DNA of 64,000 nt. Source: Obrimoposthia wandeli (taxonomy: Eukaryota). The notes below the pieces were generated by a model. That model saw only the letters and a program-made list of their open reading frames with translations, was not told the DNA's origin and did not search any database. A program made the translations under genes and the position numbers. Where the stretch lies: positions 806,001 through 870,000 of the forward strand of contig CDROCS010000772.1 of assembly GCA_977020255.1 (NCBI GenBank). The letters are read 5' to 3'. Numbering within the stretch: the first letter of the stretch is position 1; each line of letters opens with the position of its first letter. Positions 2,441-57,700 of this stretch are shown here, piece after piece.

Positions 2441-2500
2441 ACATCACACAACAACCAACCCTCAATCGAGCCCAAATTCAACATCACCTCTCTCACAGCA

Positions 2501-3936: not shown

Positions 3937-4372
3937 TGTTAGGATTAGGTTTTGAGTAATTTTAAATAATTAATTGATTTTATACTAAAATAAAAATCCT
4001 TGAAAGCAAGGTTATATTTAAAATAAAACTCATATTAAAATTAAATTGTTAAAATTAAGACGGGAATTAAATAATAGGACTACGAAGGTCATGTGTAAAC
4101 GTGTGCTGTATTTAAGGGATTTTAAACTTAACCTAAAGGCCCCAAAACGAAGTTAGCAAAGTATTGAAGAATTGATTAGAGGAAGAAGAAGGAAAATTAA
4201 AGAAAAGAAGAATATCGCAACAATCACAGCTGCCCCTGTCTGCTCTGTCTAAAAGTAAGAGCACTTATACTAAGTGCAAATTGATACAGTTTTTTTTAGG
4301 TATTGGACACAACCCACCTAACTAGTATATACTCACAACTACACTGTAATGATTCGAGATGAACCATACAGT

Positions 4373-27144: not shown

Positions 27145-27675
27145 TCAGTCATCCATTGTTAAGTCGATGGTGGGCACTGGCCTATTCCGCTCCTCGAGGA
27201 ATAGCATCACCTGCTCCAGGGGCAACGTTGGGAACACTGGAGTGTCGCCCTGGTAAAGCCCCAGCTGCTGGAAAATATTCAGATGCGGGCTTTGGCGGAT
27301 TAGAGAGGCGCCGGAACTGTGCTGCTCATGGTTGCTGAGCCACACTCGCCGAGCGTACTGCCACGAGTGGTGGTCACGGCTAGACCGCCACACCTCTCGT
27401 ATATTGCGCTGCGCGTCGCGACGGCGCACAGGGCAGATGGGGCATCGGCACCACTCGCCACAAATACAGCTGGTAGGTGAGCGGGTGCCCTTTGAGCGTC
27501 CACGGCATTGGATTGTCCACTCGGTGAAAGGTGCTCGGCACATCGGGCATGTGATGTTGCCGGCGGGTCGAGCTTTGGCCCACATATAGAGGCACGCTTC
27601 GTGGAATCGGTGAAGGCACCCGGCAGGGATTGCCGAGGAGTCCCGAACTTTGTTGAGGCCCTCCAAGCATATCAT
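27145..27675 (-). pseudogene. Inverted copy of RING-H2 protein 3, second Cys lost
   Basis: ICLEGL instead of ICSVCL; otherwise an open frame. Confidence 0.75.
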
Positions 27676-27993
27676 CTGCACAATGGTGTATCGGTTAAAT
27701 CACTTTTTTATTTGAAGTTTATATGATTTTAAACCTTAATATTTTAACCTACCAAATTTTGTCTTTTCTTAGGGTATGTTTTTCGCATTCTAAGTATAAA
27801 AATTGTCTTTTGGGATTTTCAGTATAATAATTACAATTTCAATTAAACATCATACATAAAAATGATAAAGGTCATTTTACAGTTTCACAAGATTATACAA
27901 TTATGATTACAATTATGGTAGCTATTTTACCGTGGTATGCGATACACAGGGTTAGTTCATGATGTCACGTTTATGTCAAAAAGTTACCTTCGA

Positions 27994-28299
27994 TTATTGT
28001 AGGCTATCGAGCTGGCCTGTGCGTCGCTCATCCACGCAGAACATGCATCAGCAGTCGCAGATGTCCTTCCAGCAGTGCACGATGGGTACCACTGTTTGAA
28101 GTCAGTCTCGGTTGTATACGAAGTGTACCGAGAAGGATGCCCTGCACATCGGGCAGGTTGGGTAGTCGAGGGGCTTGTTGCTGTTGACAACTGGGATCCA
28201 TGTCTCGAGACATTGGACATGGAATTTGTGTTCGCAGTTGTTGGGTTTGGTGTAGAGGTCCACGATGTTCTCGTAGCAGATGAAACATTCTCCAGACAT
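27994..28299 (-). pseudogene. Inverted copy of RING-H2 protein 2 with premature stop after the RING
   Basis: NRD* (TGT to TGA) removes the Cys-rich tail. Confidence 0.8.
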
Positions 28300-28359
28300 T
28301 GCTGTGAGAGGGGTGATGTTGAATTTGGGCTCGATTGAGGGTTGGTTGTTGTGTGATGT

Positions 28360-28586
28360 TTACACAAAGTGGTCGGATCTTGTAGTTCTGATGTACAGAA
28401 AAAACACCAACACTCTCTCAAATTTTTCCAACAAAATTCCACCTGTACATCTACATCCTCTTGGTTGGTTTCTATTATGACGAACTTTGTGAATTGTCTT
28501 CTGCATACAGGGCAACGAGGGTATGTTGGATGGGGGAACTCTCCATAAGTTGTGATCCATTTTGATAAACATTCCTCGTGGTACAT
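28360..28586 (-). pseudogene. Inverted copy of RING-H2 protein 1, N-terminus deleted
   Basis: Starts at HEECLSKW; the segment matching left-arm 2130-2215 is missing. Confidence 0.8.
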
Positions 28587-29133
28587 AATGACAATTAATT
28601 TCTACATGAATTTTACATAATTCTACACTTGTTTGTACAATCGCTTCTACATATCTCTACATATTTTTACACACTTATTTATCTACAACCTCCTCTGACT
28701 TGTCATGTGTTGATGGGAGGCGGAGGTAATGGTCGCAATTCCACTTCCTCCATCATGGTTGTATTATAGCATCGTAGTTCTTTGCATCTTCGTCGTATTC
28801 TTGGGCATACCTGACTGCCTTTCACGCACACGACTGTCAAAAGAACTTCGGCCATTACAATTAAAGCATTGACTGCAGTTATCCCGCTGTCTGAGGATTG
28901 ATAATCGTATTTTATTTTGATGTTTGTTGGTTTAGATGGCGTTTCCATTGGTGCTGTTCGGTTTCCGTGTATTATGTCTGATTTTCTAATAAATCGCGGA
29001 TTTGGATATTTTGTTTTTTATCTAATTAATCGAGATTTGAGATCCTGTGGAATCGTTCCCTTCACTCTTATCCTCTCGATAATTGTGCTTTGGTTACTGG
29101 AATCGAGCTCATTTCCTTTCACCTCTGCCTTTT

Positions 29134-30159
29134 TTATGACTGCTTTTGGTTTCTCGGAATTGAATTTTTGGGTCTGATGCTCATACCTAGTCCACGAAAT
29201 CGACGTGTCTGGTATCTTAGAGTTACATAGAATATTTCACCTGTTATTACTATGATTACGGTAGAGGTCTCTTTAGCATTACTGGAAATTCGGTTACATA
29301 TACATTCTGCATCATAATGTGGTACTAACAGTTGGGGTTGTATTGCGAATTTGATTCCGTCATATGGATTGGGACACGCCACTGTTACCTGGTCAGTTTC
29401 TAACAATCTGATAAATAAATTAACGGAATTCCATACAGTTTTACGTCGTTAATGACCATAATTATGTCAATAACTTTCCAGATGCGCTCGTCGTTAGGCA
29501 ATATTACTGACTTTGTTCGGATAATTTGGATAATCCGTTTCTTTTTTGATATTGTTATTCGTAGGTATAATACCTTTTCATAATAGAATAGTATCAGTCG
29601 GTAGTAAAGTGTATGTTTGTCAATTGTATGATCAGTATGATTCCTATTATCGTTCGGTTCCGAATCTCAGGAACTTCTCTGGGATACCTCAAGTTACTCA
29701 TGAAGTACGGTCTTTCCTCGATATGTTCATATATCGTTGGCTGATACTCTGTTTCTAGTTCATTTATAAATGCTGGTCTTAGTATAGTTGTGTCGAATTT
29801 TTGTAAATTCATTTGACCTGTTCGTCTTGCGAGATCGTGACGTTTCTTTTTCGATTTCAGCTCGATCTTTGTACAACAAAACAAGATGAGCAATATTAAT
29901 ATTATGATTCCGATAATCAATACATGTCACTGAGAAGTACTATTTTAGTTTATCCAAATGTGTATCCTTCACATGTGACAACACTAACTCCATAATATCC
30001 ATTTAGTGTTTTCATTTCTGTCGCTGGTATTATACATAATCGTTATGGACATCCTTTCACACAAATGATCATCACGGCTTTACTGTGAGACGTCTTGATT
30101 ATTTCTAGGGTGTTGTCTAGATTTCTCAAATGTAGATTATATTCAGCTAGCGTCATCAA
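29134..30159 (-). pseudogene. Inverted, internally deleted copy of the 437-aa membrane ORF
   Basis: Track ORFs 29594-29920 and 29134-29406 match parts of ORF 190-1503; deletions break the frame. Confidence 0.8.
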
Positions 30160-30384
30160 TTCAGCTTTACTCGTTGGAATGGCTTGTACAATGGTTTCTG
30201 TCTTTGACTTGAGATTTCTGATTCCAGCTTTATTCTCTCTTTACAAACCTGGTTGATTAATATGTTTTTCGTCGAAACGCCATTAGTTGCACGAACATCC
30301 AATGAAAAATGAGAAACGTATCAATTGAAAGTGTTGGTTGAATATGCTTAAAGTGAACTAAATCAATACATCCATTTTCATCTC

Positions 30385-40966: not shown

Positions 40967-42150
40967 TTAACAATTAGGTACAATTTTAATTGCAACATAT
41001 TCTCTCCTTGATTGAACCTTAATCAACAATACAATAAGGAGCATGTCACAAAATATTACTACTTGAACAGAGAAAACAAATCCACATAGAACAACAACAC
41101 CAAAAAGAAAACCCTCTCTCTCTAATACTCGACATAAATTTCTTATAGACTTCGTCTTCTCTTTCCCCTGCTCCATCAATCTGACTACCCGTACCAATCC
41201 ATCTTGTCCCTCCATCAATTTCAGTATTCTCGCTAGAGGCCATTTTCTTTGCTCATTTTTCTTTTCCAATACCAGTACAAAATCATCTACTTTCAATGGT
41301 TCCCGCGTTTCCCACCATTTTTGTCTAACTGCTTACATTGGCAATATCTCATCCATCCACCTTTTCCATAATTGTTCCATCAAACCTTGTAACAACTTCC
41401 ACCGATGTTTCACATTATTCGTGGTCAAGTCGCAATTCACCGTACCTCCAGGTATCAATAAACTATTGGGCGTCAATGAAATAATTTCTTTATTATCTTG
41501 ACTCACATAACTTCATTCCACGATCTCGCTATAATTTGTGCTAGATTGATCCCTTCACATGCATCCATTAATTCCAATTTCGGAATACTCACTGTTTTCA
41601 ACGGTGTTACTTTCGATTTCGCTGTTATTAACACAATTTTTACTTTCCTTTTTTTCCTTATCCTTAGATAACGGACCCACGAATCCTAAAGGATCAAATA
41701 CTGTGGACAAAATACTTAAGAATTCTCGCTTACTAATATTGATCCCATAATTTACTTTAGTTTTAAAAATGAAATAATCTTCTTGAGGATCCCATTGAAT
41801 ACCTAATGTCTTGACTTGACGTTCTTCATCTTTGATTCGTAATACCTTTGCTTGGTCCGATAATGGAATCTGCTTCTTAATTTCCTCACTACTCGTTATC
41901 CATTTTTTGGCTTCCATTTTCGCTCCTCGCCATATTTCTTTCACTTCTAACATTCACTAGATCCTCTGTATCTACTGAGCACAAAGTATCATCCATATAA
42001 GTATTCTCCAAGATTAATCTCGCACTATCTGTATACTTCTCTTGATATCTTCCTGCGTTTCCCTTGATACCATCTGTGCCAAAAATGGCAATGCAATTAA
42101 CCCGAACACTATCCGTTCGTATTCATAGGTCACTATAGTAGGTGGATGTG
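40967..42150 (-). pseudogene. BEL/Pao LTR retrotransposon remnant (RT, peptidase A17/RNase H-like region, integrase C-terminus)
   Basis: TYEYERIVFG and YMDD (RT); KTLGIQWDP and SILSTVFDPLG (Pao-type); LWKRWMDE...VDDFVLVLE...WPLARI...DGLVRVV (DUF5641-like). Internally deleted. Confidence 0.9.
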
Positions 42151-42211
42151 TGTCTTTCGGAACAAAGACATTTGAGCCCCCCCCCCCCGAGGGATTTTTT
42201 TTTTCCCACGG

Positions 42212-42690
42212 TGATGAGTCATCGAACAAAGACCATGAGTCATCGATGAGTCATCGATGAGTCATCGAACAAAGACCATGAGTCATCGATGAGTCATCGA
42301 ACAAAGACCATGAGTCATCGAACAAAGACCATGAGTCATCGAACAAAGACCATGAGTCATCGAACAAAGACCATGAGTCATCGATGAGTCATCGAACAAA
42401 GACCATGAGTCATCGATGAGTCATCGAACAAAGACCATGAGTCATCGAACAAAGACCATGAGTCATCGAACAAAGACCATGAGTCATCGAACAAAGACCA
42501 TGAGTCATCGAACAAAGACCATGAGTCATCGATGAGTCATCGAACAAAGACCATGAGTCATCGATGAGTCATCGAACAATGACCATGTGTCTTTCGGAAC
42601 AAAGACCATGAGTCATCGAACAATGACCATGTGTCTTTCGGAACAAAGACCATGAGTCATCGAACAAAGACCATGAGTCATCGATGAGTA
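42212..42690 (+). repeat. Tandem array of 21-bp and 11-bp units with about 24 TGAGTCA motifs
   Basis: Units GAGTCATCGAACAAAGACCAT and GAGTCATCGAT in irregular order; counted by eye. Confidence 0.95.
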
Positions 42691-42728
42691 ATGTCTTTTG
42701 TCATGCGACCGTGGGAACTTTCCCATGA

Positions 42729-42886
42729 GCGCAGGAACTTTCCCACGGTCTTGAGAATTTTCCCACGCTCAAGTCCTTTGTTCTAATAATTTTCTCAAGA
42801 TCTACTATAGTAGACATGTACTTTGCAGCTCAACCATAGATGCTATTGACAAGCGGTCTTCACCAAATGATACATAAGAGTTCGGA
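42729..42886 (+). repeat. Left terminal inverted repeat (matches 54,629-54,790)
   Basis: Reverse complement of the right-end segment with few differences. Confidence 0.9.
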
Positions 42887-44312
42887 TCAAATTAGTGAAT
42901 ATTAATTACAAGGGAATGGTTGTAAGTAACATTCAACACTTACCATTTCGGACTTCGAAGCCTCATCAGTATCGACTCAAGTGTGAAGGTTACACTATTA
43001 TCATTTTCAAATCTGGTAATTTATATTTACATTTATATATAATTCTAATTTAGGTACATGCAGAATAATGGGTTGCAAAACAGTGCTGGATGAAAGCAGT
43101 CTTCCTTTTGATATAAAAATCGAAAGAATCCAATCAATCAGTCTCAGCAGAAATCTAGAAACATCGATAAACCTAAACAAGATGAGCAAGAGTATGGGAT
43201 CAGAAGCTGTTTACGAGCCAGAAATCTTCCCGGGACTTCGATACGTCAAATACAATCCCCTATGCGTGAACATTTTTGCTAGCGGGAAGATTATGATACT
43301 CGGTGTTAAATCTTTAAACTATGAGTATCTGATTGAATGTATTTTGTTTAATATAGATCTTCACACTTGTGTTATTTATTTCCTAAACCAAATAGTTTTA
43401 AAAATAGATTTCTCTTAGAGACAAAGACATCACATGTCATTACTTGCAAATAGTTGCAAATAGTTGTAATGTGGTCTAAAAATAGATTGTTCATGGGTTA
43501 TAAACAATATTTGATTTGCTTTATCATAAAATGGATGAAATTATTGAATGTAAAGAGGTTCAGGATGCATTAAAAGATCTTGCTTCAGTTATTCTCAATG
43601 CTTTAATTAGGAAAAATAATCATGAGTAATATTTATATGTAGTTTATTTAACTCTTTAGGTTACGTCATCAACTACATTTACATGAGATGTTAAATACAA
43701 TGGAAAGGTTGAATAATACTCCAATCAAATCATATGATGAAACTGATGCTCCAATGAAATCAAACCTTGTTTAATATATAAGACTAAATTGACTCGGAAT
43801 TGATAAAATGGAGAAAATCGATTCAGCACCAGAAGCAACATCATCATCAGTAACATCATCACCACCAGCAACAACAACAACAGTTATAAGAAGAGAAGAA
43901 ACTATTGATGAAGTGACGATAGAAGAAGAAATTATTATAGATCCAATTATTGAAGATAAGAGACGGATAGATTTTTAAATGCTTTGGCTTTTATGGAACC
44001 CATAATAGCTCATGCTTCGAGTATGGAAATGAACCACATGACCCATCTTTTTGATAGTTTGTTTAGTGCTAGATTTACTCAACTTAATGTAGAAAAGTTA
44101 AACAAAACCGCGATGAGTGAGATTTTAGTAAATCAATTATATATTGGTAATTATAGAGATGGGTTTGATGAAACTAATCTTTTGAATTCCAATTTCACTC
44201 ATGTAATCAATACATATATACTGGATAAAATATCTTATAAGAAATTAAAATATACTTCTGTCTTTGTAAACTCAAAATTAGGAGAAACAATAATGAAGTA
44301 TTATAAACAGAC
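42886..44312 (+). repeat. 1.43-kb inverted duplicate of 50,329-51,756 (5'-truncated TBP-like gene, 69-aa gene, 3'-truncated phosphatase-like gene)
   Basis: I saw only about three differences; lengths are 1,427 vs 1,428 bp. Confidence 0.95.
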
Positions 44313-44317
44313 ATTTT

Positions 44318-44716
44318 TTATAGCAATAATTTTATTTGATATTGTTTATGCTTTAACCAAAGCAGACAGAGTTGTCCACATGACTGTGTTAAAACATTTT
44401 GATAATGTTTCTTACTAAAATGTACTTTCTTTCCAGAATCAAGTACTGTAGATACTAATTTAGAAGGGTAATATATCCCAAAGGGATCAAAAACAAAGAT
44501 TTCATTTTCTTTAACATGTATTGCAATCCAATGTTCACCACGCAAATTAGATGAATGTGTATTGATTACATATCCACCTAGTCGAGTCAAAGAGGGGATG
44601 TGATCAAGGCTGTAGACTCCATTGAAACGCGAACCGAGTAGTTTTCTTCCGCTTTTTGTTATCTCGTCCGAACTAGAATATATATTAATTAATAAATTCA
44701 AACTGACTTACTTCAT
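44318..44716 (-). CDS. Adenain-like cysteine (maturation) protease; 39-nt intron at 44673-44711
   Basis: GEHW, FDPFG and Q...SCGQLC catalytic motifs. ATGAA|GTAAGT...TTCTAG|TTCGGAC gives MNSDEI... in frame. Confidence 0.9.
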
Positions 44717-44751
44717 TTATATATATATCTTCTTTATTGTTTTCATTCTGT

Positions 44752-45981
44752 TTATACTAGTACTGTTCCTCCCTTGGTAATTTGAACCTCAGAATCGAAT
44801 ACTCCATAGATTATAATATTAGTAGGATGTTCAAGTGCTTTTGAAAACTTGATTTCTACTTTCAAATTTCCCTGTTTAGGTATTTGAGCTTGATTAATAT
44901 CGAAATCAGGAGAGAGAACAAATGTGAACAGTGTATACTTGTCCTTGAAATCAGTCATTGAAATTCCAATATTAGCATCCTTATCCAAATGACCAAGATT
45001 TCTAATTAAAGATTGCACATAAGAAAACACATAATCATCGTTTTCAAAGTCATTCGTATAAGATTCTTGATAATCAATATTTCGTGCAAGTTTAATTGAA
45101 CTCACATTCATGTGTCCAAATTGAGAAACCTCATTTTTAGACTCACCTCCATAGGTAGAAGTGTTTTGGAAAGCAATTAAAACAAAGTTTGGAAGTTGCA
45201 TATCACCAAAAATCTGATCCTTGTAATAAGATAGTGCTCCTGTAGGGATAGCGTGAGAAACAAGATTAGTTTTTCTAATAGGATAACATGCATTTTGCTT
45301 CTCCAACCCCATTCGATGTGCAACAAGTACAGATGGTTCCACCTTTACTCTTCGAACCAGCAGTTTTGCTTCCGTAATCTCAATTGCGGTTTTAATAGTA
45401 TCAGCGCAAACAACACTAAAACCTACTGGATTTCTCTTCATCCGAATATGTGCACTTACACCGGGTAAAAGATACTTTGGTTGCTTAAAGAAATCCAAAT
45501 GGAGACTCCCACAAAGTGACAATACTTTAGACTTTGCAATCGAAGCAATTCTTCTTTTTTCATCATTGTCAAACCCAATTGCATCAAGATTAATCAATTT
45601 CGTATCATTACCGTAATTCAACAATGTTTCAATCATTGCTTTATGAGTGTAGCTAGTATTATTTCCCTCAACTTTCACATTATTGAGACTGAGAATCACA
45701 TCCTTGAAAAGAGTATGCAACATGTAATTAGCTGATTTGATATCCATACCATCATCCAAATCACCTCCACCTTCCTTTGTAACTTTCAATTTAACGAGAA
45801 ATAAACTATCATTCAAATCAAGATATTGAGTATTGGATCCATTAATATTGAATTCTAAATCCGGAGAAGATGTCCCGTTAACCGTATTTGTCGGAAATAT
45901 TTCTTCAAAACTAGCACTATCAACCACAACCTGAGGTATAGGTTTATCGAATATACACAATTCAGTTTTAGCACAACTCAT
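44752..45981 (-). CDS. Major capsid protein (double jelly-roll, Polinton PY-type)
   Basis: 409 aa; N-terminal KTELCIFDKP.PQ...FEEIFP and LEFNI...YLDLNDS motifs typical of Polinton MCPs; position next to the protease. Confidence 0.85.
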   Translation of the reverse strand: MSCAKTELCIFDKPIPQVVVDSASFEEIFPTNTVNGTSSPDLEFNINGSNTQYLDLNDSLFLVKLKVTKEGGGDLDDGMDIKSANYMLHTLFKDVILSLNNVKVEGNNTSYTHKAMIETLLNYGNDTKLINLDAIGFDNDEKRRIASIAKSKVLSLCGSLHLDFFKQPKYLLPGVSAHIRMKRNPVGFSVVCADTIKTAIEITEAKLLVRRVKVEPSVLVAHRMGLEKQNACYPIRKTNLVSHAIPTGALSYYKDQIFGDMQLPNFVLIAFQNTSTYGGESKNEVSQFGHMNVSSIKLARNIDYQESYTNDFENDDYVFSYVQSLIRNLGHLDKDANIGISMTDFKDKYTLFTFVLSPDFDINQAQIPKQGNLKVEIKFSKALEHPTNIIIYGVFDSEVQITKGGTVLV

Positions 45982-46343
45982 TACTTAAAAATTGTTCCAC
46001 CTAGTTTCAAACGTTTGTTTATACCCGATACTTTAGATGTTTTCTTACGTTTATAACCACTTCCCTTTTGAGTTTTCTTTTTCAAAAATTCAGCTAGACT
46101 TGGTGAAATTTCATTCACCTGATCCAAGGCTGCTTCCTTTAGTGTGGGAAGAAATTTCTCATCACTTGACAAGTATTTTGATCCAACATTAGCAATAAAT
46201 TTCCCGAGTCGCTTGAGTAGTGGGAAAGCAAAGCGACCAAAAACCTTCATCCATCCTGATCCATACTGTTTTCCGGCAAAATAAGGCAAATCACCTCCTT
46301 GCATCGGTTTACTATATGCATCGATTATACTTGAATCAATCAT
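45981..46343 (-). CDS. Small basic virion/core-type protein
   Basis: Q.GG and QYGSGW...FGRFAFPLLKRLGK amphipathic motif common in Polinton small ORFs; TAATG coupling to MCP. Confidence 0.65.
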   Translation of the reverse strand: MIDSSIIDAYSKPMQGGDLPYFAGKQYGSGWMKVFGRFAFPLLKRLGKFIANVGSKYLSSDEKFLPTLKEAALDQVNEISPSLAEFLKKKTQKGSGYKRKKTSKVSGINKRLKLGGTIFK

Positions 46344-47387
46344 AATTTACGAAAATGAACCGTTAAACTTGTTTTAGCTCCGTAAGCAAATGTAATTAAT
46401 CTTCCAGAATCATTACGTATATTAACTTCAATATTGTTTATAGAAGAAGAACTCACGGGAATATACATTGGATTTTCAATTGGAATATGTATAACATCAC
46501 CATACTTGTGCTTTTCCTGTTGAACCCAAATTGCTTTAATTAGGTGAAGTTTCCTTCCTCCTACGAATATTGGTTCGGTAATACTCGTGTAGATATAAAT
46601 CTGATTATATGCATTAGTCATTTTAGGAATAATCTTTGCTTTGAAAACCTCATTTTTATTTTCAAATTCATTTTCATCAAAACCGATAATTGAGGCTAAT
46701 GATTTATCCATGATGATTTTATCAATATTGGATTTCAATTTGAAATGAATCAATTTATTAACTAGTTTAAAGTTTTCAAATACATTTGGTAACACTGTTT
46801 TAAAATGTTTACACATACTTTTGCTATCGGCAAAAAAGAAAATCATTGGGAACTGAATATATTTTCCTCTCGCGTTTAACGAATCTATTTTTTATCTTGA
46901 ATGTAATTATCGGATACTTGACATGATTATCCATAATTTTTGAAACTGCATGCTTACCTTTTTCAACGTTAGGCGGAAATCCATATTGTTCTGCAACAAT
47001 TTCATCATTAAAAACTATTTCAAAATTATCCCCTTTTCCCATAATTTGAATTCGATTCTCTTTATTTAAAAAGATTGTGAAATCATCGCCCGCCTTAATA
47101 CGAGCCAAATCCATTTGACCCTTATCAAATAGTAAAGTCACATCAGTTACTTTATCAACTTCACGTTGGGTAATATATTCAATCTCAGTTTCACTTTGAA
47201 TAGATAGAGGAGAGTAATTGAAAGAAAATTCCGTAAGAGCAGCTTCCCAACCACCAGGTAAATTGATTGAGCTTTGATAATCAATACTAAAACTATTAGC
47301 AGTATTATTCGGTTGAGTTAATGGCGAACCATTACTTGGTAATACAACATACATTGAGTTCATTCTATTTGAGAAGCTAATATCCAA
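46340..47387 (-). CDS. Minor capsid (penton-like, PX-type) protein split by a single-base frameshift
   Basis: N-terminal YVVLPSN...NTANSF...WEAALTEF; C-terminal IYIYTSI.EP.FVG...PMYIPV...IEVNIRNDSG...LHFRK-type end. The frames overlap at 46824-46846 in a T run. Confidence 0.8.
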
Positions 47388-48388
47388 CTAGGTTCAGTAT
47401 ATCCATGCCACTTAACATGATATTGTTTATGCTTTCCTCTACCTTTTGTCTCTAAAATTTCTTGGATTCTATATACATTCGGTTTCTCAGGCAAGACTTG
47501 TAATTCCTCATGATAAAATTTACCCGTGATTACCTTATTGGTTTCATCCTCAATGAAATACATTACCGGCATACGTTTATTATCAATTTTAGTTATACGA
47601 AATACTTCATCACTCCAATTCTCTTTGAAATTCTTTATAAAAGGAGTAGTACTAATTTGAGAAATACGTACATAATCACCAACTTTATACTTGGGTTTCC
47701 GCGCAACTTGACTTTGGTTACGGCGTTGCCAAATTGCCATAGCATTCTCATCTGTAACATCAACGGGTCTCTTTCGGTCTAATGATGAGTGTTCACTATG
47801 ATTGTATGCATGTATTATTTGAGGTAAAACAGTAACCCAGGACTTATTTCCCTGCTTTGTGAAATACTTTTTCAAACGATCTCTCAATGTTCGATTAAAA
47901 CGTTCAACTAAAGCGGCTTTATATTGGGAAAATACTGAGTAATGATTAATATTATGTTTTTTCAATAGTGTTTCAACATGTTTATTATAAAACTCCTTTC
48001 CACTATCCGTTTGGAAATTTCTTGGTTTTATTTCTTTAATCAAAAGCTTCATTGCGGTTAAAACATCGGTACCAGACTTAGACTTTAATGGAATAGCTCG
48101 CGCGAATCTGCTAAAGACATCAACACAAGTTAAAATATATCGATATCCGTTGTTAATACTCGCATACGGAATCATTTCCATCAAATCTGCTTGCCATAAA
48201 TCATTCGGGCCGCTCGTTTTGTATGATCTCGTTGGGAACCGACGTCTCATTGGTTTGTTTAAGCTGTAAGCTAATTGATTTCTCAACCACGCCTGAGTTT
48301 CCTGCTTTGTCTTCTTTGTCTCTTTTGCTAATTTTGAAACCCCTGTGTAACCAACGGGATGACTTGGATCGAACCATATTTTCTCCAT
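47360..48388 (-). CDS. Retroviral-type (rve) integrase with C-terminal chromodomain
   Basis: WQADL, FQTDSGKEF and VERFNRTL (DDE); YRIQEIL...YHVKWHGY...SW chromodomain. Confidence 0.95.
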   Translation of the reverse strand: MEKIWFDPSHPVGYTGVSKLAKETKKTKQETQAWLRNQLAYSLNKPMRRRFPTRSYKTSGPNDLWQADLMEMIPYASINNGYRYILTCVDVFSRFARAIPLKSKSGTDVLTAMKLLIKEIKPRNFQTDSGKEFYNKHVETLLKKHNINHYSVFSQYKAALVERFNRTLRDRLKKYFTKQGNKSWVTVLPQIIHAYNHSEHSSLDRKRPVDVTDENAMAIWQRRNQSQVARKPKYKVGDYVRISQISTTPFIKNFKENWSDEVFRITKIDNKRMPVMYFIEDETNKVITGKFYHEELQVLPEKPNVYRIQEILETKGRGKHKQYHVKWHGYTEPSWILASQIE

Positions 48389-48485
48389 TGCAGCAAGACG
48401 ATTTGATTTTTAAATTGAATTTAGGAATAGATGGAAGTGATCCCATATATAAATTCATATTATTGATTCGAATTTATGTTTATAA

Positions 48486-48908
48486 TCATCGGTTAATTAG
48501 TCTACTAGCAAGTGCACCAACTATTGAGCTAATAATTGGTACGAGAAATCCTAAAAATCCACCACTTTGCTTATAAAGCAACTTACGTTTACCGATTCGT
48601 GTTTTGGCATGAAACAAAGCAAGTAGAGGTTTCTTATGCCGATTCAGGTTAGCCTTGACAATTATTTTACCAGAAACTATTTTCTGTATCATATTAAGTA
48701 AATCATCAATTACAAAAGTAGGGAATGATTTAAGAATAGCTGGGCGGCGAACAGCAGGTGCACGCATGAGAGAATTGAAATAGGCAGTACTCCTAGATTT
48801 CCTAACAACAGTTCTTTTCGATTTTTGAGCAACCATTTTCCTTGCACTTAAAACTGATTTAATCAATTTTTTAACTTCGGGTTTAACAGTTTCCTTTTTA
48901 AAATTCAT
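48486..48908 (-). CDS. Basic Polinton virion protein with GGFL motif and hydrophobic C-terminus
   Basis: KRKLLYKQSGGFLGFLVPIISSIVG, a motif widely seen in Polinton small proteins and a possible protease site; ATGA overlap with the ATPase. Confidence 0.7.
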   Translation of the reverse strand: MNFKKETVKPEVKKLIKSVLSARKMVAQKSKRTVVRKSRSTAYFNSLMRAPAVRRPAILKSFPTFVIDDLLNMIQKIVSGKIIVKANLNRHKKPLLALFHAKTRIGKRKLLYKQSGGFLGFLVPIISSIVGALASRLINR

Positions 48909-49555
48909 CTTCTCAAAACTGGTTTCTTTGTTTGTTTATAGATGGTTATTCCCGATGGATTGAATACATCAGTTCTAACTCTAAAGTCATCGGGACAATC
49001 TTGAGTAAAATCAATAAAAATGTATCCATGAGGAATAGTAGTTGCATCTTGAAATGAATCAATTAAAAACTTTCTATTATTCGGGTAAGCTTGTCTTGAA
49101 ACAAAATCAACAACCGTCTGATCACGTGGATTCTTGAAGAGAACAAGGTAATGTACATTTAAATTACGAGTTCTATGGTTCCCTCCTTGATGAAATAGAT
49201 TTTGTGTGATGAAAATAACAGTTACTTCCCGATGTCGTGCTATTTTAGTGAATAAATTATTGAAATCACTCTCTTTATTTGCTTCTTGATATAAATCATC
49301 AATAACAATAACATCATGTCGTTGTAATCGCTCAGACCAATTATCATCGAATCCATTAATGACTTTTATATTTTTGATTTTCTTAAACTCTTTACTGGTT
49401 AAACCAGCTTCTCCATCTCCTCCCTGATGCCAGTATATTTTATTAAACTTAAAACTAAAGTATTTATTATTTTGCAGTAATTTACATACAAAATGTGTTT
49501 TCCCACTACCACTAGGACCTACAATCTGAAAAACTGAATTATTTTTTAAGTTCAT
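48905..49555 (-). CDS. A32/FtsK-like DNA packaging ATPase
   Basis: Walker A GPSGSGKT, Walker B VIVIDD, ARHREVTVIFITQN and FKNPRD. Confidence 0.95.
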   Translation of the reverse strand: MNLKNNSVFQIVGPSGSGKTHFVCKLLQNNKYFSFKFNKIYWHQGGDGEAGLTSKEFKKIKNIKVINGFDDNWSERLQRHDVIVIDDLYQEANKESDFNNLFTKIARHREVTVIFITQNLFHQGGNHRTRNLNVHYLVLFKNPRDQTVVDFVSRQAYPNNRKFLIDSFQDATTIPHGYIFIDFTQDCPDDFRVRTDVFNPSGITIYKQTKKPVLRR

Positions 49556-49598
49556 ATTAAAAATATTAGATTATCGGGATAATGTTTATAAGACAAAA

Positions 49599-49880
49599 CT
49601 ATTTAAAATATTTTATTACTAAACATCCAGCAACAAACAATAAAAAACTCTTCTCGTAGAAAAAGCTACTTTTCTCTTCTTTGTTTGCGAGTTTCTTCTG
49701 ATTGTATCCCTGAATGAGAAGATTGACTGCCTTGTCATGCACCATTCTTCTTACGTGCTCCTCCAGGGGTAGATTTGAGACATCAATGAGTTGCAGGACA
49801 TCTGGTTCTATGACATTCTTCGAGATGAAGCTCTTCACCGCCTTGTCAACATCTTGCTTGAAATAGTTTGGAGTAGACAT
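49599..49880 (-). CDS. 93-aa tail-anchored hypothetical protein
   Basis: C-terminal FLLFVAGCLVIKYFK; TATATAAG upstream at 49928-49935. Confidence 0.6.
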   Translation of the reverse strand: MSTPNYFKQDVDKAVKSFISKNVIEPDVLQLIDVSNLPLEEHVRRMVHDKAVNLLIQGYNQKKLANKEEKSSFFYEKSFLLFVAGCLVIKYFK

Positions 49881-49959
49881 AATGATGATGAAGAAGTAAA
49901 AAAAAAAAAAAAAAAAAAAGTAATCTGCTTATATACTATATACCTGAAATCTGATTGGT

Positions 49960-50100
49960 TAATAAATACACTGACTAATAAAGACACTAAAGACACTGAC
50001 TAATAAAGACACTAAAGACACTGACTAATAAAGATACTGATTAATAAAAACACTGATTAATAAAAACACTGATTAATAAAAACACTGATTAAAGATAAAG
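49960..50100. repeat. Short tandem repeats (25-bp and 16-bp units) in an intergenic spacer
   Basis: ACACTGACTAATAAAGACACTAAAG x2-3, then ACACTGATTAATAAAA x3-4. Confidence 0.8.
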
Positions 50101-50111
50101 ACGAATAAAAT

Positions 50112-50834
50112 TTACACATGATAACGATTAAAAATACGTATTTGATGAAGCATAGCTTCATTAGGAGCAGCAATAGTCCGTTTAGCTTTAACAAGATTCG
50201 AAGCAGCAGTAACACCAATCGAATGAGATAAAAATGCAATAACAATGCAAGCAGCATGTAAACTACCATAATGACCACATACTAAAATCTTACCACCATT
50301 TTCGATAGTTTCTTTAATTATATTATTAGTCTGTTTATAATACTTCATTATTGTTTCTCCTAATTTTGAGTTTACAAAGACAGAAGTATATTTTAATTTC
50401 TTATAAGATATTTTATCCAGTATAGATGTATTGATTACATGAGTGAAATTGGAATTCAAAAGATTAGTTTCATCAAACCCATCTCTATAATTACCAATAT
50501 ATAATTGATTTACTAAAATCTCACTCATCGCGGTTTTGTTTAACTTTTCTACATTAAGTTGAGTAAATCTAGCACTAAACAAACTATCAAAAAGATGGGT
50601 CATGTGGTTCATTTCCATACTCGAAGCATGAGCTATTATGGGTTCCATAAAAGCCAAAGCATTTAAAAAATCTATCCGTCTCTTATCTTCAATAATTGGA
50701 TCTATAATAATTTCTTCTTCTATCGTCACTTCATCAATAGTTTCTTCTCTTCTTATAACTGTTGTTGTTGTTGCTGGTGGTGATGATGTTACTGATGATG
50801 ATGTTGCTTCTGGTGCTGAATCGATTTTCTCCAT
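50112..50834 (-). CDS. Dual-specificity phosphatase-fold protein, predicted inactive
   Basis: SEIL..QLYIGN, FTHVIN and GGKILV...GS...A.IVIAFL; the HCX5R loop reads CGHYGSLH. Confidence 0.85.
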   Translation of the reverse strand: MEKIDSAPEATSSSVTSSPPATTTTVIRREETIDEVTIEEEIIIDPIIEDKRRIDFLNALAFMEPIIAHASSMEMNHMTHLFDSLFSARFTQLNVEKLNKTAMSEILVNQLYIGNYRDGFDETNLLNSNFTHVINTSILDKISYKKLKYTSVFVNSKLGETIMKYYKQTNNIIKETIENGGKILVCGHYGSLHAACIVIAFLSHSIGVTAASNLVKAKRTIAAPNEAMLHQIRIFNRYHV

Positions 50835-50867
50835 TTTATCAATTCCGAGTCAATTTAGTCTTATATA

Positions 50868-51111
50868 TTAAACAAGGTTTGATTTCATTGGAGCATCAGT
50901 TTCATCATATGATTTGATTGGAGTATTATTCAACCTTTCCATTGTATTTAACATCTCATGTAAATGTAGTTGATGACGTAACCTAAAGAGTTAAATAAAC
51001 TACATATAAATATTACTCATGATTATTTTTCCTAATTAAAGCATTGAGAATAACTGAAGCAAGATCTTTTAATGCATCCTGAACCTCTTTACATTCAATA
51101 ATTTCATCCAT
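50868..51111 (-). CDS. 69-aa hypothetical protein; 34-nt intron at 50983-51016
   Basis: CATGA|GTAAT...CTTTAG|GTTACG joins MDEIIECKE...NNHE|LRHQLHLHEM...NLV* in frame; TATAAA upstream. Confidence 0.6.
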
Positions 51112-51223
51112 TTTATGATAAAGCAAATCAAATATTGTTTATAACCCATGAACAATCTATTTTTAGACCACATTACAACTATTTGCAACTATTTGCAAGT
51201 AATGACATGTGATGTCTTTGTCT

Positions 51224-51771
51224 CTAAGAGAAATCTATTTTTAAAACTATTTGGTTTAGGAAATAAATAACACAAGTGTGAAGATCTATATTAAACAAAA
51301 TACATTCAATCAGATACTCATAGTTTAAAGATTTAACACCGAGTATCATAATCTTCCCGCTAGCAAAAATGTTCACGCATAGGGGATTGTATTTGACGTA
51401 TCGAAGTCCCGGGAAGATTTCTGGCTCGTAAACAGCTTCTGATCCCATACTCTTGCTCATCTTGTTTAGGTTTATCGATGTTTCTAGATTGCTGCTGAGA
51501 CTGATTGATTGGATTCTTTCGATTTTTATATCAAAAGGAAGACTGCTTTCATCCAGCACTGTTTTGCAACCCATTATTCTGCATGTACCTAAATTAGAAT
51601 TATATATAAATGTAAATATAAATTACCAGATTTGAAAATGATAATAGTGTAACCTTCACACTTGAGTCGATACTGATGAGGCTTCGAAGTCCGAAATGGT
51701 AAGTGTTGAATGTTACTTACAACCATTCCCTTGTAATTAATATTCACTAATTTGATATTATGAAGTAGCAT
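51224..51771 (-). CDS. TATA-binding-protein-like protein (169 aa); 38-nt intron at 51589-51626
   Basis: The spliced product has both TBP repeat signatures: TIIIFKSG|TCRIMGCK and YEPEIFPGLRY...VNIFASGKIMILGVKS. The intron has GT, CTAAT and AG. Confidence 0.85.
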
Positions 51772-51834
51772 TTCTGATTATTATAAACTGATTTCTTCTA
51801 TTTATACAATTTGAACATATATTTTTAGATTTGC

Positions 51835-52835
51835 TTAATTGCCTATGCTATGAAATCTAATATTTCTTACTCGTCTAATGATAATTGTCTTGCAATATGG
51901 ACATGTAATAAAACGATCTGAACATTTAATACACGTGTTTAAGTGACCGCATGGTAAAAATGCCACGGAAATCGCATCACTCATGCAAACAACACATTCG
52001 GGATTTGGTAAGAGGTACTCGAGATAATTTATCCGATGTTTTGGTTCAGATTTTATTTCTAAAGACCTTAAATCCGTTATAAACTCATATATAGAATCAT
52101 ATTTATTACCGAATGTTTTAAACCTATTAACTAAAACGGCTTTGATTCTATCATGGCTGTAATCACGTTTCAGCAAAACTATTTGACGAGTTTCCATCTG
52201 GGCATCAATTTCATCATTACTAATATGATATTCAACAATACATCCGTTCTTGATTCCCATACTAGATGCTTTACAATCTCGAGTATGAAAGATTCTTTCG
52301 GGCATAGTATCAATAAGGTCAAGTCGGGGTACTGCTTTCCGACAGAAACAACATCGATAAGAATCATTCCAAATATATACATGATCGAAAATCGATAATG
52401 TAGGTATTTCAATATCATTAGAATAATTATTGCGCACAATAACTACTTTATCCATTGGAGTTGTATCAAAATCAATTTGGGTGGTGCTGGAATCAATTAT
52501 TGGTACGTTTGAAACATTCATTTTCAAAACAAACGGGCATCTTGGGAAAAATAGCTGATGTTGCTTCATTGGTTTCAGATAGTACTCCCATCCTGATATT
52601 CCTCCTGACAGTAAATACACTTTACATTATCTTTCGAATCATCGTGCTTGTAAAATCCTGCTTTTGCTAAAGCTTTCTTATGGGCTAAACCAGTAAACTT
52701 TGCTTGTAACGATTCTAATCTTCTTTCTTCATATATCATATTTTCATTTATTCTTGAAATATTATCAAAACGCCGTCGTCTAATGGTGAGTTCTCCGTTT
52801 TCTGAAACATAATGTGCAATAAATTTAGTAGTCAT
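51835..52835 (-). CDS. Inhibitor-of-apoptosis protein (BIR, degenerate BIR, RING-HC) split by one frameshift
   Basis: EERRLES...LAKAGFY...DNVKCIYC / GGISGWE...H...FPRCPFV; second CCFC...H...C; C-terminal CVVC...FLPCGH..TC..C....CPYC. Confidence 0.9.
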
Positions 52836-52880
52836 AACAAAATTGAATGATGAAATTGTCTAGCTTATATAGTAAGTGAA

Positions 52881-52922
52881 AATCTATTTTTAGACCACAT
52901 TACAACTATTTGCAACTATTTG
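52881..52922. promoter_or_regulatory. 42-bp element also present at 51,154-51,195; candidate shared promoter
   Basis: AATCTATTTTTAGACCACATTACAACTATTTGCAACTATTTG, located 43-46 nt upstream of two minus-strand ATGs. Confidence 0.6.
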
Positions 52923-52947
52923 TCTTAGTATAAACAATATTTTGATA

Positions 52948-53628
52948 ATGGATAATCAAAATAATCAAAATAATGAAAGTAGAGCTAGTACATACATAGG
53001 TTCCAGTAGTAATTTATATTCTAATATGAATTATAATAGAAATAATCAGAGAGAAAATATTAATCCATCAAGTCAAACAATAACAAGTCCTACGCGCGTA
53101 ACCGAAGAACGTGAGCCCTTTAAGGATATGACTAATACTAGACGATAAACAAGAATGTTAAGCAATTGAGACTAATCGACCAATTAGAATCGAGCTTTAG
53201 AGGATAAACAATTGAATATTTCAATTTATAATTGTCAATATGAATTTCGAAAAGCTATATCAACCTATGCATACATATTTTGGATATGAGATGCACTTTT
53301 TGAAAAAGCTCATAACTATAATTTTATTTTTCCTATCAACATCGAGCCGCTTAAATTTGATTTTGAAATATCAAATTTGACTTCTGTGGATAAAGAGAGA
53401 ATCAATATTCTCTTGACTCAATTCGGAATCAACTATGCACTTCAGGAAAACAAATTCGTAATCAAAGGATCAACTGCCACTTTCAAGCATGAGAATGGAA
53501 CAATATACGAAGCACCTCCTCCTAAGCTAGAATGGATTATCTCAATCAGAATTCAAGGATGCAAGATCGGGCCCAGTGGATTGGAAACTCCGATATGGAA
53601 AATAATTGATGCTGTTAGAGTTGACTAA
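52948..53628 (+). pseudogene. Frameshifted hypothetical gene, possibly an OB-fold ssDNA-binding protein
   Basis: Several frame breaks; C-terminal WIISIRIQGCKIGPSGLETPIWKII loosely resembles viral SSB C-termini. Confidence 0.3.
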
Positions 53629-53715
53629 TAAATTTTTGTGTCTTTATTTGTATTATTTTATATATATATTATTTATTATTATATTATAAACAATAGTGAT
53701 ACTTTAATATTTATT

Positions 53716-53880
53716 ATGAAAATGACTAAAAAACCTACTAAATCATTAAAGACTAGGGTTAAAAAGACTATGAGTAAAAAGACTATGAGTAAAAAGAAAA
53801 TCATGGAAGGTTTGGGTATTCATATGATGGCAGCAAATCTTTTAGGTAGATGGTTTGGGGAGTTGATAAAAAATCTATAA
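53716..53880 (+). CDS. Small Lys-rich protein with amphipathic C-terminus
   Basis: MKMTKKPTKSLKTRVKKTMSKKTMSKKK...MAANLLGRWFGELIKNL. Confidence 0.45.
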   Translation: MKMTKKPTKSLKTRVKKTMSKKTMSKKKIMEGLGIHMMAANLLGRWFGELIKNL

Positions 53881-54059
53881 AGCACAAAAGAATGTGGATT
53901 ATTTGAGAGGTATACAAAATCAGAAACGAGTGCAAAAAGGAGATGGTATACAAAAAGGGGATGGTATGCTTGATATTTTTGTAAAATTAGATAAACTTAC
54001 AAAAGCATTTGAAAAGGATCTAGTGCCTATCTTGGTCCAAAACTAAACTTTTTAGCAAA

Positions 54060-54630
54060 CCGACCAAAAACTTAAATTTTGAAGAAAATAATTTTTTGAA
54101 AATAAATTTTTGAAGAAAATAAATTTTTTGAAAATAAATTTTTTTTGAAGAAAATAAATTTTTGAAGAAAATAAATTTTTTAACTTTTAGGAAAAAATAA
54201 ATTTTTTGAAGAAAATAATTTTTGAAAGAAAATAAATTTTTGAAAGAAAATAAATTTTTTAACTTTTTAGAAAAATAAATTTTTTGATGAAAATTTTCAG
54301 AGGCAAACAGAAATGTTTTCATGTACAAAAATTTTTTTGCAAAAATGATGTACAAGTGATTTAGAAACTTTAATTTTGGCGCCAAAATTTTTGAAAATTT
54401 AAACAAAATATTTTGAAAAAATAATTTTAACTTTTTGGAAAAAATAAAAAATTTGAAAATTTTGAAGGTTTTTGACCCTTGAAGGTCCTTGGAAGGTCGG
54501 ACCAACCTCGACCAAGTCCATTATCCATAACATCAAAAAGTAGAAAAATAAAAATTTTTGAACCCTTTGAAGGTTTTTGATCCTTGAAAGGTCCAACCCT
54601 CGAAGGTCTGGTCAACCCCAGTCGAAGGTC
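54060..54630. repeat. Subterminal low-complexity repeats
   Basis: Many AAAATAAATTTTTTGAAG-type units (54060-54450), then GAAGGTC/GAAGGTT-type units (54460-54630). Confidence 0.8.
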
Positions 54631-54790
54631 CGAACTCTTATGTATCATTTGGTGAAGACCGCTTGTCAATAGCATCTATGGTTGAGCTGCCAAGTACATG
54701 TCTACTATAGTAGATCTTGAGAAAATTATTAGAACAAAGGACTTGAGCGTGGGAAAATTTTCTTAAGACCGAGTAGGAAAGTTCACTGCG
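54629..54790 (-). repeat. Right terminal inverted repeat, truncated by the foldback
   Basis: Matches 42,729-42,886 until the mirror point. Confidence 0.85.
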
Positions 54791-54794
54791 CCTT

Positions 54795-57700
54795 CTGCTT
54801 GAACTTTCCACGGTCTCTTAACTCCCCCTCAAGATCTATAATGAACATGTTTAATTGATCTTCACTAAATACATAAGTTCGGACCTCTAGTGACAGGCAA
54901 CTCGGGGTAAAAACTCAGGATTCAGAACTTTTTCTGCACTTTTGATGTTATGGACTGGACTTGGTCGAGGTGGCCTTCAGGGCCTTCAGGTCAAGCCTTC
55001 AGAGGCACAAATTTATTTTTCAAAGAGACAAAAGAGTATTTTTTCAAAAATATTTTGTTTATTTCTCAAAATTTGGCATAAGTAAAGGGCTAATCACTTA
55101 TTATCATTTTGCAAAAAAAGAGTACGTACGTAATTGCCTCTGAATTTTCATCAAAATTATTTCAAAGTTGAAATTATTTTCAAAGGTATTCAAGTATTTG
55201 CACTCAAAAATTTTCTAAAGAGACAAAATTGTTTTCTTCAAAACATTTTCTTCAAAAGAAATTGTTACCTGTCAAAGAACATTACTCAAAATTGACCTGT
55301 CAAAGAAACCCGACCTCAAATATTTTTCTTCAAAATTTAGTTTTGATCGGATTTTAAATGCTGTAGTTTATCTGAACACAAAATATCAGCGCCATCACTT
55401 TGGCATACCTAAGATTTAACAAACCTTCCGCCGATTCTGCTCATGGTCTTTGCTGGTCTGTGATTGGTGGGTTTCATGAAGTATCACTTGTGGGTGTAAT
55501 AATAGTAATATGTAAACAATGCAAATCTCAAGAACACAAAAATTGTCAGTCAACTCTAACAGCATCGGTGACGCCGCCAATCCGCTGGGCCCGATCTTCG
55601 TCGCGGAGTCGGTTGGTAATCCCGATGCAGAGAATCATGCTGGTGGCGATGGAACACGAACTGAGCACTGGTCGCCAGTTATTCGAGCCAGTCAGAAGAA
55701 GATATTGATTCTCTTTATCCACAGAGACATCAAGACTGATATTCAAATCAGAGACTAACAGCCTCGTAATTGACTAGAAAAAATGGAAATTATGGTGCTC
55801 TCAAGAGATACATCTCATATCCAAAATGTATGCAGACGATATAACAAAATATATTATTCGAGCCGTTTATCCTCTAAACTCGATTCATTAATCTCAATTA
55901 ACTAACATTCTTGTTTATCGTCTAGTATTAGTCTGTCATAAAGAGCACGCGCGTAGGACTTGTTGTTTGACTTGATGGATTAATATTTTCTCTGATTAAC
56001 TATTATATTCATATTAAATATAAATTACTACTGGAGACTAGCTCTACTTTCATTATTTTGATTATTTTGATTATCCGATATCAAATATTGTTTATACTAA
56101 GACAAATAGTTGCAAATAGTTGTATTGTGGTCTAAAAATTTTTCACTTACTATATATAAGCTGAACAATTTCATCATTCAATTTTGTTATAATACTAATT
56201 GTGCATTATGACTCGAAAACGGAAAACTGCGTTGACGGCGGTGGCTTCAGGAAAATGAAAAAGGTAAATTTGCTAAGCTACTGGTTTAACCTGCTTTAGC
56301 AAAAGCAGAGACTGCACGGTCGAAAAATAATGTAAAAGTGCTAATATCAGAGGATGGGGAAGTACTATCTGAGCCAATGGTGGCTGTTTCCCAAGATGCC
56401 GTTGTTTGAAAATGGTGAAACGGCAATAGTGATCGCGCAAGTGATCCAATGGATAAGCCCCGGTATTAGCGCTGTGTTGTGATATTAATCTGCATTATCG
56501 TTACCGATATATATATTTGGAATGATGCTGTCGTGTTGTCAGCTGTACCCGGCGACTGCTGTGCTATGCCTGATGCCATACTCGAGGTGTAAGCTCTGAG
56601 GAATCAGAAAGTAGTCTTGTGATTGGTATCATATTAGCTAATGATGAAGTGCCAGATAAACTCATATCTGACCCAACCATGATAACCGGCCACAGTGGAG
56701 TTGCGTGACCGACTTCATTCTATATATGGTTAGATTCATCAAAATCTGAACAAGCGCTCGGATAAATCTCGGTACTCTGCAAATGAAATGTGTTGGGCTA
56801 CATAGTGACATTCAGCAGGCTCACTAAACACGTGTATTCATTCAGATCGTTGTATGTCCCATATTACTGGAGCAATTATCATTGGGCAGTAGAAAATATT
56901 AGATTTCATAGGCAATTAAGCAAATCTAAAAATATATGTTCAAATTAACATAAATAGAAAGAAATCGTTTATAATAATCAGAAATGCTACTTCATAATAT
57001 CAAATTAGTGAATATTAATTACAAGGGGAGACTGGTTGTAGTAACATTCAGCACTACCATTCGAACTTCAAGCCTCATCAGCCAATCAAATTTAGTACCG
57101 ACACAAATCTGTTATTATGACTACATTTATATACTAATTCTAATTTAGGCTGCATCTGAAATAATGAGTTATAGCTGATGCTGGATAACAGTCTTCCACG
57201 ATATAAAATCGAAGAATCAATCAATCGATACCAGCGGCAATCTAAAGCATCGACCAAACCTAAACAAGATGAGCAGAGTATCCGGGATCGAAGCTGTTTA
57301 CGGCCAGCGTCGGGACTTCGATGCGTCAAGCAATCCCTAATGCGGCACATTTTTGCTGGCGGGAAAGATATGATACTCGGTGTTAAATCTTTAAGCGTGG
57401 TACTCTGATTGAATATATTTTGTTTAATATAGATCTTCACTGTTTAAAATAGACTACTCTTAGAAATTAAAGGCATCACATCGTATTACTTGCAAAATAG
57501 TTCCAAATGGTAACAATAATGATCTAAAAATAGATTGTTCATGGAGTTATAAGCTAATATTTGTTTACAACATCATAAATGGATGAAGTATTGAATATAA
57601 GAGGTTCAGGATGCGATAGATATCTTTGCTTCAGTGAAAATGCTTTAATTAGAAAATAATCATGAGCATAATATTTATAGTTTATTTGGCACTCTTTGGG

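Follow-up and report, generated by a model that had tools for sequence, protein, structure and literature searches.

A reduced TBP gene conserved in a Maverick lineage and its probable role as a promoter factor of the element

The gene and the element around it

The window analysed here is the whole 64,000-nt stretch of contig CDROCS010000772.1 (806,001-870,000), numbered so that position 1 is its first letter; on its minus strand it holds a gene, mini-TBP, that runs from an ATG at 51771 to a TAG at 51224 and comprises 510 nt (169 codons and a stop) once a short predicted intron is taken out. The list of open reading frames cuts this gene into ORFs of 60 and 116 aa. An earlier note, made from the letters, had removed a 38-nt intron to obtain a 169-aa TBP with a short first repeat and without an N-terminal extension, and had assigned the gene to a Polinton/Maverick element; the exons, the reading frame and the Pfam and PDB matches agree with this, the short repeat and the absent extension prove to be common to the whole family, and rve, A32 and capsid-type neighbours are indeed seen. 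The gene, its promoter and its additional copies are laid out as follows.

51627..51771, minus: mini-TBP exon 1, 145 nt, encoding a reduced N-lobe (S1, S3, S4) without helix H1 and strand S2
51589..51626, minus: predicted mini-TBP intron, 38 nt, GT-AG, phase 1, AT-rich
51224..51588, minus: mini-TBP exon 2, 365 nt, encoding S5, a short linker replacing helix H2, the complete C-lobe, the TFIIB stirrup and the stop
51799..51806, minus: canonical TATA-like box TATAAATA, 35 nt upstream of the mini-TBP ATG
42886..44312, plus: inverted duplicate (99.8% identity) of mini-TBP and of part of the phosphatase gene
56984..57440, plus: third mini-TBP copy, decayed or poorly assembled, 80% identity with 57 gap columns

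The Pfam TBP family (PF00352) matches exon 2 with an E-value of 6.6e-13 (48.8 bits, cut-off 22.9), and the ORF of exon 1, searched by itself, matched no Pfam family; intronless homologues reach 59.7-63.8 bits against PF00352, in the C-lobe only, and the PDB sequences of solved TBPs align with mini-TBP at a best E-value of 1e-14. The duplicate mini-TBP (42886-43418) is without the first 15 nt and the promoter, and the third copy sits within an inverted copy of the element. The rest of the element reads as follows.

42137..42885, plus: left terminal inverted repeat, AGT start, tandem-repeat array
44321..44716, minus: putative capsid-maturation protease, with a 39-nt intron directly after the ATG
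44673-44711, minus: that protease-gene intron; like introns occur in L060, L071, L050, L037 and L101
44752..45981, minus: putative major capsid protein, 409 aa, with YATAAAC at -42 and -74
45981..46343, minus: conserved 120-aa virion-module gene, with YATAAAC at -99, within the upstream ORF
46340..47363, minus: putative minor capsid gene, two ORFs in the window copy, with YATAAAC at -68
47360..48388, minus: rve integrase (rve 3.3e-14) with a chromodomain-like end and YATAAAC at -96
48486..48908, minus: basic core protein, weak adenovirus pX match, with YATAAAC at -32
48905..49555, minus: A32-type packaging ATPase (A32 3.9e-6), with YATAAAC at -35
50112..50834, minus: dual-specificity phosphatase, with TATATAAG at -33
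51835..52835, minus: IAP-like gene (BIR and RING), two ORFs in the window copy, with TATATAAG upstream
53240..53628, plus: predicted gp2.5/Enc34-type SSB gene, frame-shifted in the window copy

The element is a copy, lacking PolB, of a Maverick/adintovirus family. Several genes of the window copy are split, and other copies of the family carry a protein-primed PolB (PF03175, 2.3e-10 in L036); a sister copy on G000:C1312 has terminal inverted repeats that start with AGT and a 6-bp target duplication, and the window contains the left terminus only. The protease and major capsid labels follow from motifs that we take to be diagnostic, together with synteny with relatives, and the minor capsid label is likewise our assumption. 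No Pfam family matched the 409-aa capsid protein, including PF21738, which the capsid-distinct Maverick family of the same host used below as a control does match.

The SSB gene is a frequent neighbour of mini-TBP in many relatives, and the model of this neighbour (pLDDT 93.8) fits gp2.5/Enc34-type SSBs with middling Z scores of 7.3-7.6, for which reason the idea that it might be a TFIIB-like cofactor was dropped; a search of the ESM Atlas with it returned no usable match. The window copy (42137-54791) and that on G000:C1312 (L041-L043) represent a PolB-less subfamily in which two long arms, inverted relative to each other, repeat the accessory region; at least 10 contigs carry two TBP copies in inverted orientation with a spacing of about 8 kb. 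Of 30 copies, 9 (L110, L111, L114, L119, L126, L131, L133, L134 and L137) have lost both the TBP and the IAP gene by a recurrent 1.7-kb deletion between two direct repeats (window 51223-52919), and the joint of this deletion is present in all four run assemblies. The tandem array of the terminal repeat (42203-42692) is rich in TGAGTCA, presumably an AP-1-like site. Elsewhere in the window, 161-7985 and 22808-30188 form a large inverted duplication of up to 98.6% identity with RING-finger ORFs, unrelated to the Maverick, and a metagenomic relative carries a gene for a ubiquitin-conjugating E2 (L071, 225-722, minus strand).

The predicted saddle and the word YATAAAC

The protein that was folded is a 151-aa homologue (L056), 54% identical over 142 residues, with an alignment of 72 sequences. 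Its model (pLDDT 97.6, pTM 0.86) retrieves TBP as the top Foldseek match in PDB (E 2.6e-10, TM 0.72-0.77), and VIA superimposes it on TBP with Z 13.7 and an rmsd of 2.3-2.6 A over 146-148 of its 151 residues, the next unrelated structure standing at Z 6.9. The structural comparison with the TBP saddle that had been proposed thus comes out positively for this homologue, which is predicted to form the two-lobed saddle. In the model the C-lobe is complete, and H1, S2 and H2 of the N-lobe have shrunk to turns (helical turns of 3 residues); the N-lobe spans have medians of 38 and 58 residues (n=25), whereas the same spans measure 47 and 69-71 residues in three canonical TBPs.

Residues are numbered as in yeast TBP, after Table 1 of PMC12529657. 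Counts refer to 38 homologues below 80% identity that passed a score and coverage filter. The numbers given to I194 and to the stirrup glutamates are ones we presume. The window protein retains N69 (N10), F116 (F46), F190 (F107), P191 and F207 (F123) as well as both stirrup glutamates, E103 and E105, which are kept in 37 and 36 of the 38 homologues, respectively; the equivalents of F116, F190 and F207 are found in 37, 38 and 37. F99, by contrast with these, is Pro in the window protein and in 37/38 homologues, leaving three of the four intercalating Phe residues. Further along the DNA face, and alike in the window protein, V71 has become Asn (38/38), V122 Arg (37/38), T124 Met (38/38), N159 Ser (35/38), I194 Arg (35/38) and L205 Asn (37/38), and the window protein has Gln at A101 (Gln or Met in homologues) and Ser at V161 (Thr or Ser in homologues), such that seven of nine DNA-face changes are identical in 35-38 of the 38 homologues.

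The earlier note had pointed to the intercalating Phe residues and to the TFIIA and TFIIB surfaces as places to look, and both give a divided answer: F116, F190 and F207 are kept, but F99 is Pro and the DNA face is rebuilt; the TFIIB glutamates are kept, but the N-lobe helices that form the TFIIA surface are missing. In canonical TBP, a basic patch of the N-lobe serves TFIIA, TAF1, Brf and Mot1 (passages of PMC7221094). The TFIIB surface of mini-TBP is, from its residues, likely kept, and binding of TFIIB is predicted.

A candidate target for such a saddle emerges from the upstream regions of the element's genes. Windows from -120 to -10 before the ATG were scanned for capsid, minor capsid, 120-aa, core, ATPase, integrase, protease and exonuclease-like genes from 19 loci, with starts that were guessed and with ten genes dropped that had no Met near the expected start. 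The word YATAAAC lies upstream of 37/46 of these virion and integrase genes and of 0/46 on the antisense strand, and 300 shuffles gave a mean of 2.1 and a maximum of 7; by gene, the ATPase has it in 10/11 cases and the capsid in 6/6. It precedes TBP genes in 0/19 cases, SSB genes in 1/9 and PolB in 0/2, and 9 of the 19 TBP genes have a canonical TATA in the scanned window, the remaining 10 being without one. Sites cluster at -32 to -53, and many others lie 70-105 nt before the ATG; in the window family, YATAAAC also precedes PolB, a lysine-rich gene and two small genes. Given these exceptions, the SSB gene and the TBP genes without TATA, the word divides early from late genes imperfectly. In the control family no TBP match was found in the nine loci examined and YATAAAC was present in 0/32 of the upstream windows listed, these being copies of one family and some of them short or non-genes; protein and word are accordingly linked by co-occurrence in one clade, set against one control family. 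As an observation on the control family itself, its integrase ORF has a phospholipase-A2-like domain (L090, 8335-9633, minus strand).

The earlier note had pointed to TATATAAG as the DNA on which to look for binding of mini-TBP. Three sites of this kind occur in the window, before the IAP gene, the phosphatase gene and a 93-aa gene and none before virion genes, and TATATAAG was set aside; the upstream counts of the virion genes make YATAAAC the candidate instead. A reading of YATAAAC as a poly(A) signal fits poorly, because the site at -99 is located in the upstream ORF, some 95 nt short of the stop codon, and because the word precedes divergently oriented genes. YATAAAC differs from TATA by its C, which falls in the 3' half of the box, the half that the N-lobe contacts in canonical complexes.

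The alternative that fares best, improbable as we hold it to be, is that a host factor reads YATAAAC, be it a forkhead protein or a host TBP that accepts C at position 7, and that mini-TBP is a helper or acts elsewhere. ATAAACA matches what we take to be the forkhead consensus. The many sites at a greater distance from the ATG would suit such a factor. A host-type TBP binds in crystals a box whose position 7 is C, the C(-25) box, by the title of PDB entry 1qn3 and by a passage of PMC4402545 that treats Hoogsteen pairing on TBP and this box; its activity is reduced, PMC10005294 giving 27% for TATAAACG. Against a host factor, the antisense count of 0/46 and the proximal cluster of sites fit a core-promoter element, the control family, a Maverick of the same host in which no TBP was found, does without YATAAAC, and the word is wholly missing before the TBP gene itself.

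The earlier suggestion that mini-TBP might be a dominant-negative decoy, sequestering TFIIB or occupying host TATA boxes and thereby dampening host transcription, seems to us slightly less probable again. It would be in keeping with the kept TFIIB glutamates, with the loss of one intercalating Phe and with the position of the gene among the host-modulating IAP and phosphatase genes; however, a decoy has no need for near-invariant new residues on its DNA face, host regulators bind the very basic surface of the N-lobe that is lost here (PMC7221094, in part), and a matching private promoter word exists. The decoy fits less well because the regulator surface of the N-lobe is absent and the DNA face tightly constrained.

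We consider it quite unlikely that mini-TBP is a non-transcriptional DNA-bending protein that binds the termini for replication, integration or packaging, a view favoured by its frequent place beside the SSB gene, by its head-to-head arrangement with PolB in two families and by the occurrence of TBP-like lobes in other nucleic-acid proteins (passages of PMC7221094), but one in which the TFIIB stirrup, conserved like the fold core, would be purposeless.

Probable splicing, coding constraint and spread

Mini-TBP is a real, conserved and constrained gene, and very probably a spliced one, with a 38-nt GT-AG intron removed by the host, as judged from the following comparisons. Separate alignments of the two exons to contiguous homologues of 151-156 aa abut with neither gap nor overlap; such intronless homologues make up 3/4 of the first matches and are found at most of 24 metagenomic loci, and two other Maverick families of the same genome carry an intronless mini-TBP. 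At the same codon and in the same phase, GT-AG introns of unlike sequence are present in two other lineages, measuring 40 nt in the metagenomic element L078 and 39 nt in L033 and L107, which belong to another family of the host genome. Short introns are, moreover, the norm in this setting: the protease gene of the element and of most relatives has one of 36-40 nt, and those of the host TBP genes measure 47-48 nt.

Constraint was assessed on 30 copies chosen through the adjacent phosphatase gene, of which 19 hold a whole mini-TBP, 1 a partial one and 10 none. GT and AG are retained in all 19 full-length copies, and 13 of these have no exonic indel or stop. The distinct exonic changes are 22 synonymous and 21 non-synonymous, where 20.6% synonymous would be expected (p 9e-6, or p 0.003 if the expectation is put at 30%), and the three exonic variants that are present in at least 12 copies are all synonymous. 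In four run assemblies (contigs from one sample), five exonic variants, again all synonymous, were seen among 40 of the 190 matches listed; none of these 40 skips the 38 nt, which has no bearing on expression. That the gene is broken or unexpressed and its 38 nt an inactivating insertion is very improbable: although the putative intron is shorter than those of the host TBP genes (47-48 nt) and intact vertebrate Mavericks are described as intronless in a passage of PMC8097293, the same-site introns of unlike sequence in two other lineages, the short protease-gene intron kept by most relatives and the synonymous excess in the spliced frame all speak against it.

Short introns recur around this gene. 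The protease gene begins with ATG-AA followed by a GT-AG intron of 36-40 nt in 5/7 loci by pattern and in L101 by eye, in L054 the ATG is missing but an intron of this kind is present, and L076 has no intron in this gene; in L036 (2600-2760, minus strand) a short GT-AG intron apparently follows directly on the ATG of PolB, and TATAAAC stands upstream of it, and a possible small spliced gene, also with TATAAAC upstream, lies between mini-TBP and the phosphatase (window about 50868-51111, minus strand). Given the short introns in the TBP and protease genes, ORF-based annotation overlooks such genes. The host itself has two TBP genes placed head-to-head about 1.2 kb apart, and intronless TRF-like genes (L021/L022 on G000:C238, L024, L025, L023).

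The earlier note had regarded TBP as no core Polinton gene; here it is no one-off cargo, the gene being conserved throughout a Maverick lineage. Exon 2 has at least 150 matches of 98-100% identity in the 1.35-Gb assembly, and at loci chosen for their PolB or capsid genes, independently of TBP, mini-TBP is present whole or in pieces in 5/5, from three families. Profile searches yielded 45 clusters (50% identity) at E < 1e-30 and 400 proteins at E < 1e-20, the sources listed being almost all metagenome or run assemblies, and the same Maverick gene order is found on the longer metagenomic contigs examined; together they form a widespread element-borne clade of TBPs of 144-155 aa, separate from host TBP. 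Searches of IMG/VR that started from TBP, capsid and ATPase sequences detected no relative, and a phage collection had no mini-TBP match.

The phylogeny called for in the earlier note bears out this separation: on a quick tree of 69 rows, rooted at the midpoint, mini-TBPs and a less reduced group split off with an SH-aLRT of 100, and host TBP, host TRF and archaeal TBP lie on the opposite side of this branch. The separate clade on this tree suggests that the gene is old in the Maverick lineage; a recent capture from host TBP was rejected on the same tree. The less reduced group comprises a subset of proteins P0108-P0154, TBP-like, of 150-200 aa and with a partly reduced N-lobe, which joins the mini-TBPs.

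Proposed role and comparison with known systems

The reading we favour is that mini-TBP, a reduced and in all likelihood spliced TBP, is probably the element's own promoter factor for its capsid, packaging and integrase genes. More broadly, a lineage of animal Mavericks may run its own transcription cascade, with a regulator-proof minimal TBP of altered DNA specificity, the private word YATAAAC and the TFIIB and Pol II of the host, a proposal for and against which the balance appears to us about even. On the favoured reading, host TBP, acting at an ordinary TATA box, would first have the mini-TBP gene transcribed, after which the short intron would be taken out by the host spliceosome; mini-TBP would then sit on the minor groove of YATAAAC by means of the polar, rebuilt saddle that the model predicts, and its retained glutamate stirrup might recruit host TFIIB and Pol II. 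As the N-lobe helices are missing, it would escape control by TFIIA, TAF1, Mot1 and Brf. The earlier idea that the protein redirects Pol II to element promoters survives as the likely role, in view of the promoter word and the kept TFIIB glutamates, its binding being predicted.

TBP and TFIIB are a textbook pair whose association is DNA-dependent. The scan of the element's ORFs gave no match to TFIIB, several small ORFs being without assignment, and the whole host genome has 12 matches to PF00382 (TFIIB) as against at least 150 to mini-TBP. Mini-TBP is not needed in cis, as 9 of the 30 copies have lost the gene by deletion, which is as expected for a factor that acts in trans.

If the proposed cascade exists, it would provide evidence that so-called transposons keep a timed viral life cycle. 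With a promoter factor of the element's own and a word to match, questions on Maverick gene control and a staged cycle could be tested using one small protein and a reporter. Mini-TBP is also a natural deletion experiment, a saddle without N-lobe helices and without one intercalating Phe whose TFIIB surface is intact and whose DNA face is changed; it could thereby reveal the minimal needs of a TBP, and an orthogonal promoter system for Pol II could be built on it.

With other Mavericks/Polintons (adintoviruses) the element's family shares pPolB (missing from the window copy), the rve integrase, the A32 ATPase, the capsid, the protease, the AGT termini and, in a sister copy, the 6-bp duplication, and it differs from the intact vertebrate Mavericks (intronless in the part of PMC8097293 concerned) by its short introns. 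The legend of Fig. 5 in PMC8502044, and in its preprint, carries the gene label 'TBP', and one supplement of that paper had no match. In the literature searched, with most subscription journals and Repbase outside it, neither a family of Maverick TBPs nor a reduced lobe nor a promoter word for it was described. Our results suggest a viral TBP mimic in a virus group where, apart from that figure label, none is described in the literature searched.

Cellular and archaeal TBPs and the TRF/TBPL proteins (PF00352; 1mp9, 5fur, 7o4i, 1qna) share with mini-TBP the two-lobed saddle (Z 13.4-13.7), the equivalents of N69, F116, F190, P191 and F207 and the TFIIB glutamates. Mini-TBP is nonetheless about 30 residues shorter, with N-lobe elements H1, S2 and H2 reduced to turns, has Pro for F99 and Asn, Arg and Ser/Thr for hydrophobic residues of the DNA face, and stands as a clade apart from host TBP and TRF on the quick tree (SH-aLRT 100).

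The TBP-like proteins of NCLDVs, among which poxviral VITF-3 may be counted, likewise combine a viral TBP fold with an eroded regulatory surface of the N-lobe (PMC7221094). In BFVD, the homologue model has matches from E 5.5e-9 with identities of at most 20%. NCLDV TBPs are as a rule accompanied by a TFIIB of the virus, and the first glutamate is present in only about 40% of them (PMC7221094, in part), whereas no TFIIB was found among the element ORFs scanned and the glutamates of mini-TBP are nearly invariant.

A further parallel is the vTBP of beta- and gammaherpesviruses, for instance KSHV ORF24, which is described in the relevant sections of PMC12529657 as a TBP-fold factor of viruses without their own RNA polymerase, with a DNA face rich in polar residues and a private TATA variant before structural genes. 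There vTBP is a proven late-promoter factor, polar at V122, T124, V161, L114 and L205 (PMC12529657, Table 1). ORF24, however, is in those sections a multidomain protein of 752 aa that has all four Phe residues, lacks the TFIIB glutamates and works within a viral complex, whereas mini-TBP is a bare saddle of 144-169 aa in which the glutamates are kept and for which no partner was found. If the proposed transcription cascade exists, Mavericks would have evolved, independently of herpesviruses and giant viruses, a late-gene switch consisting of a single protein.
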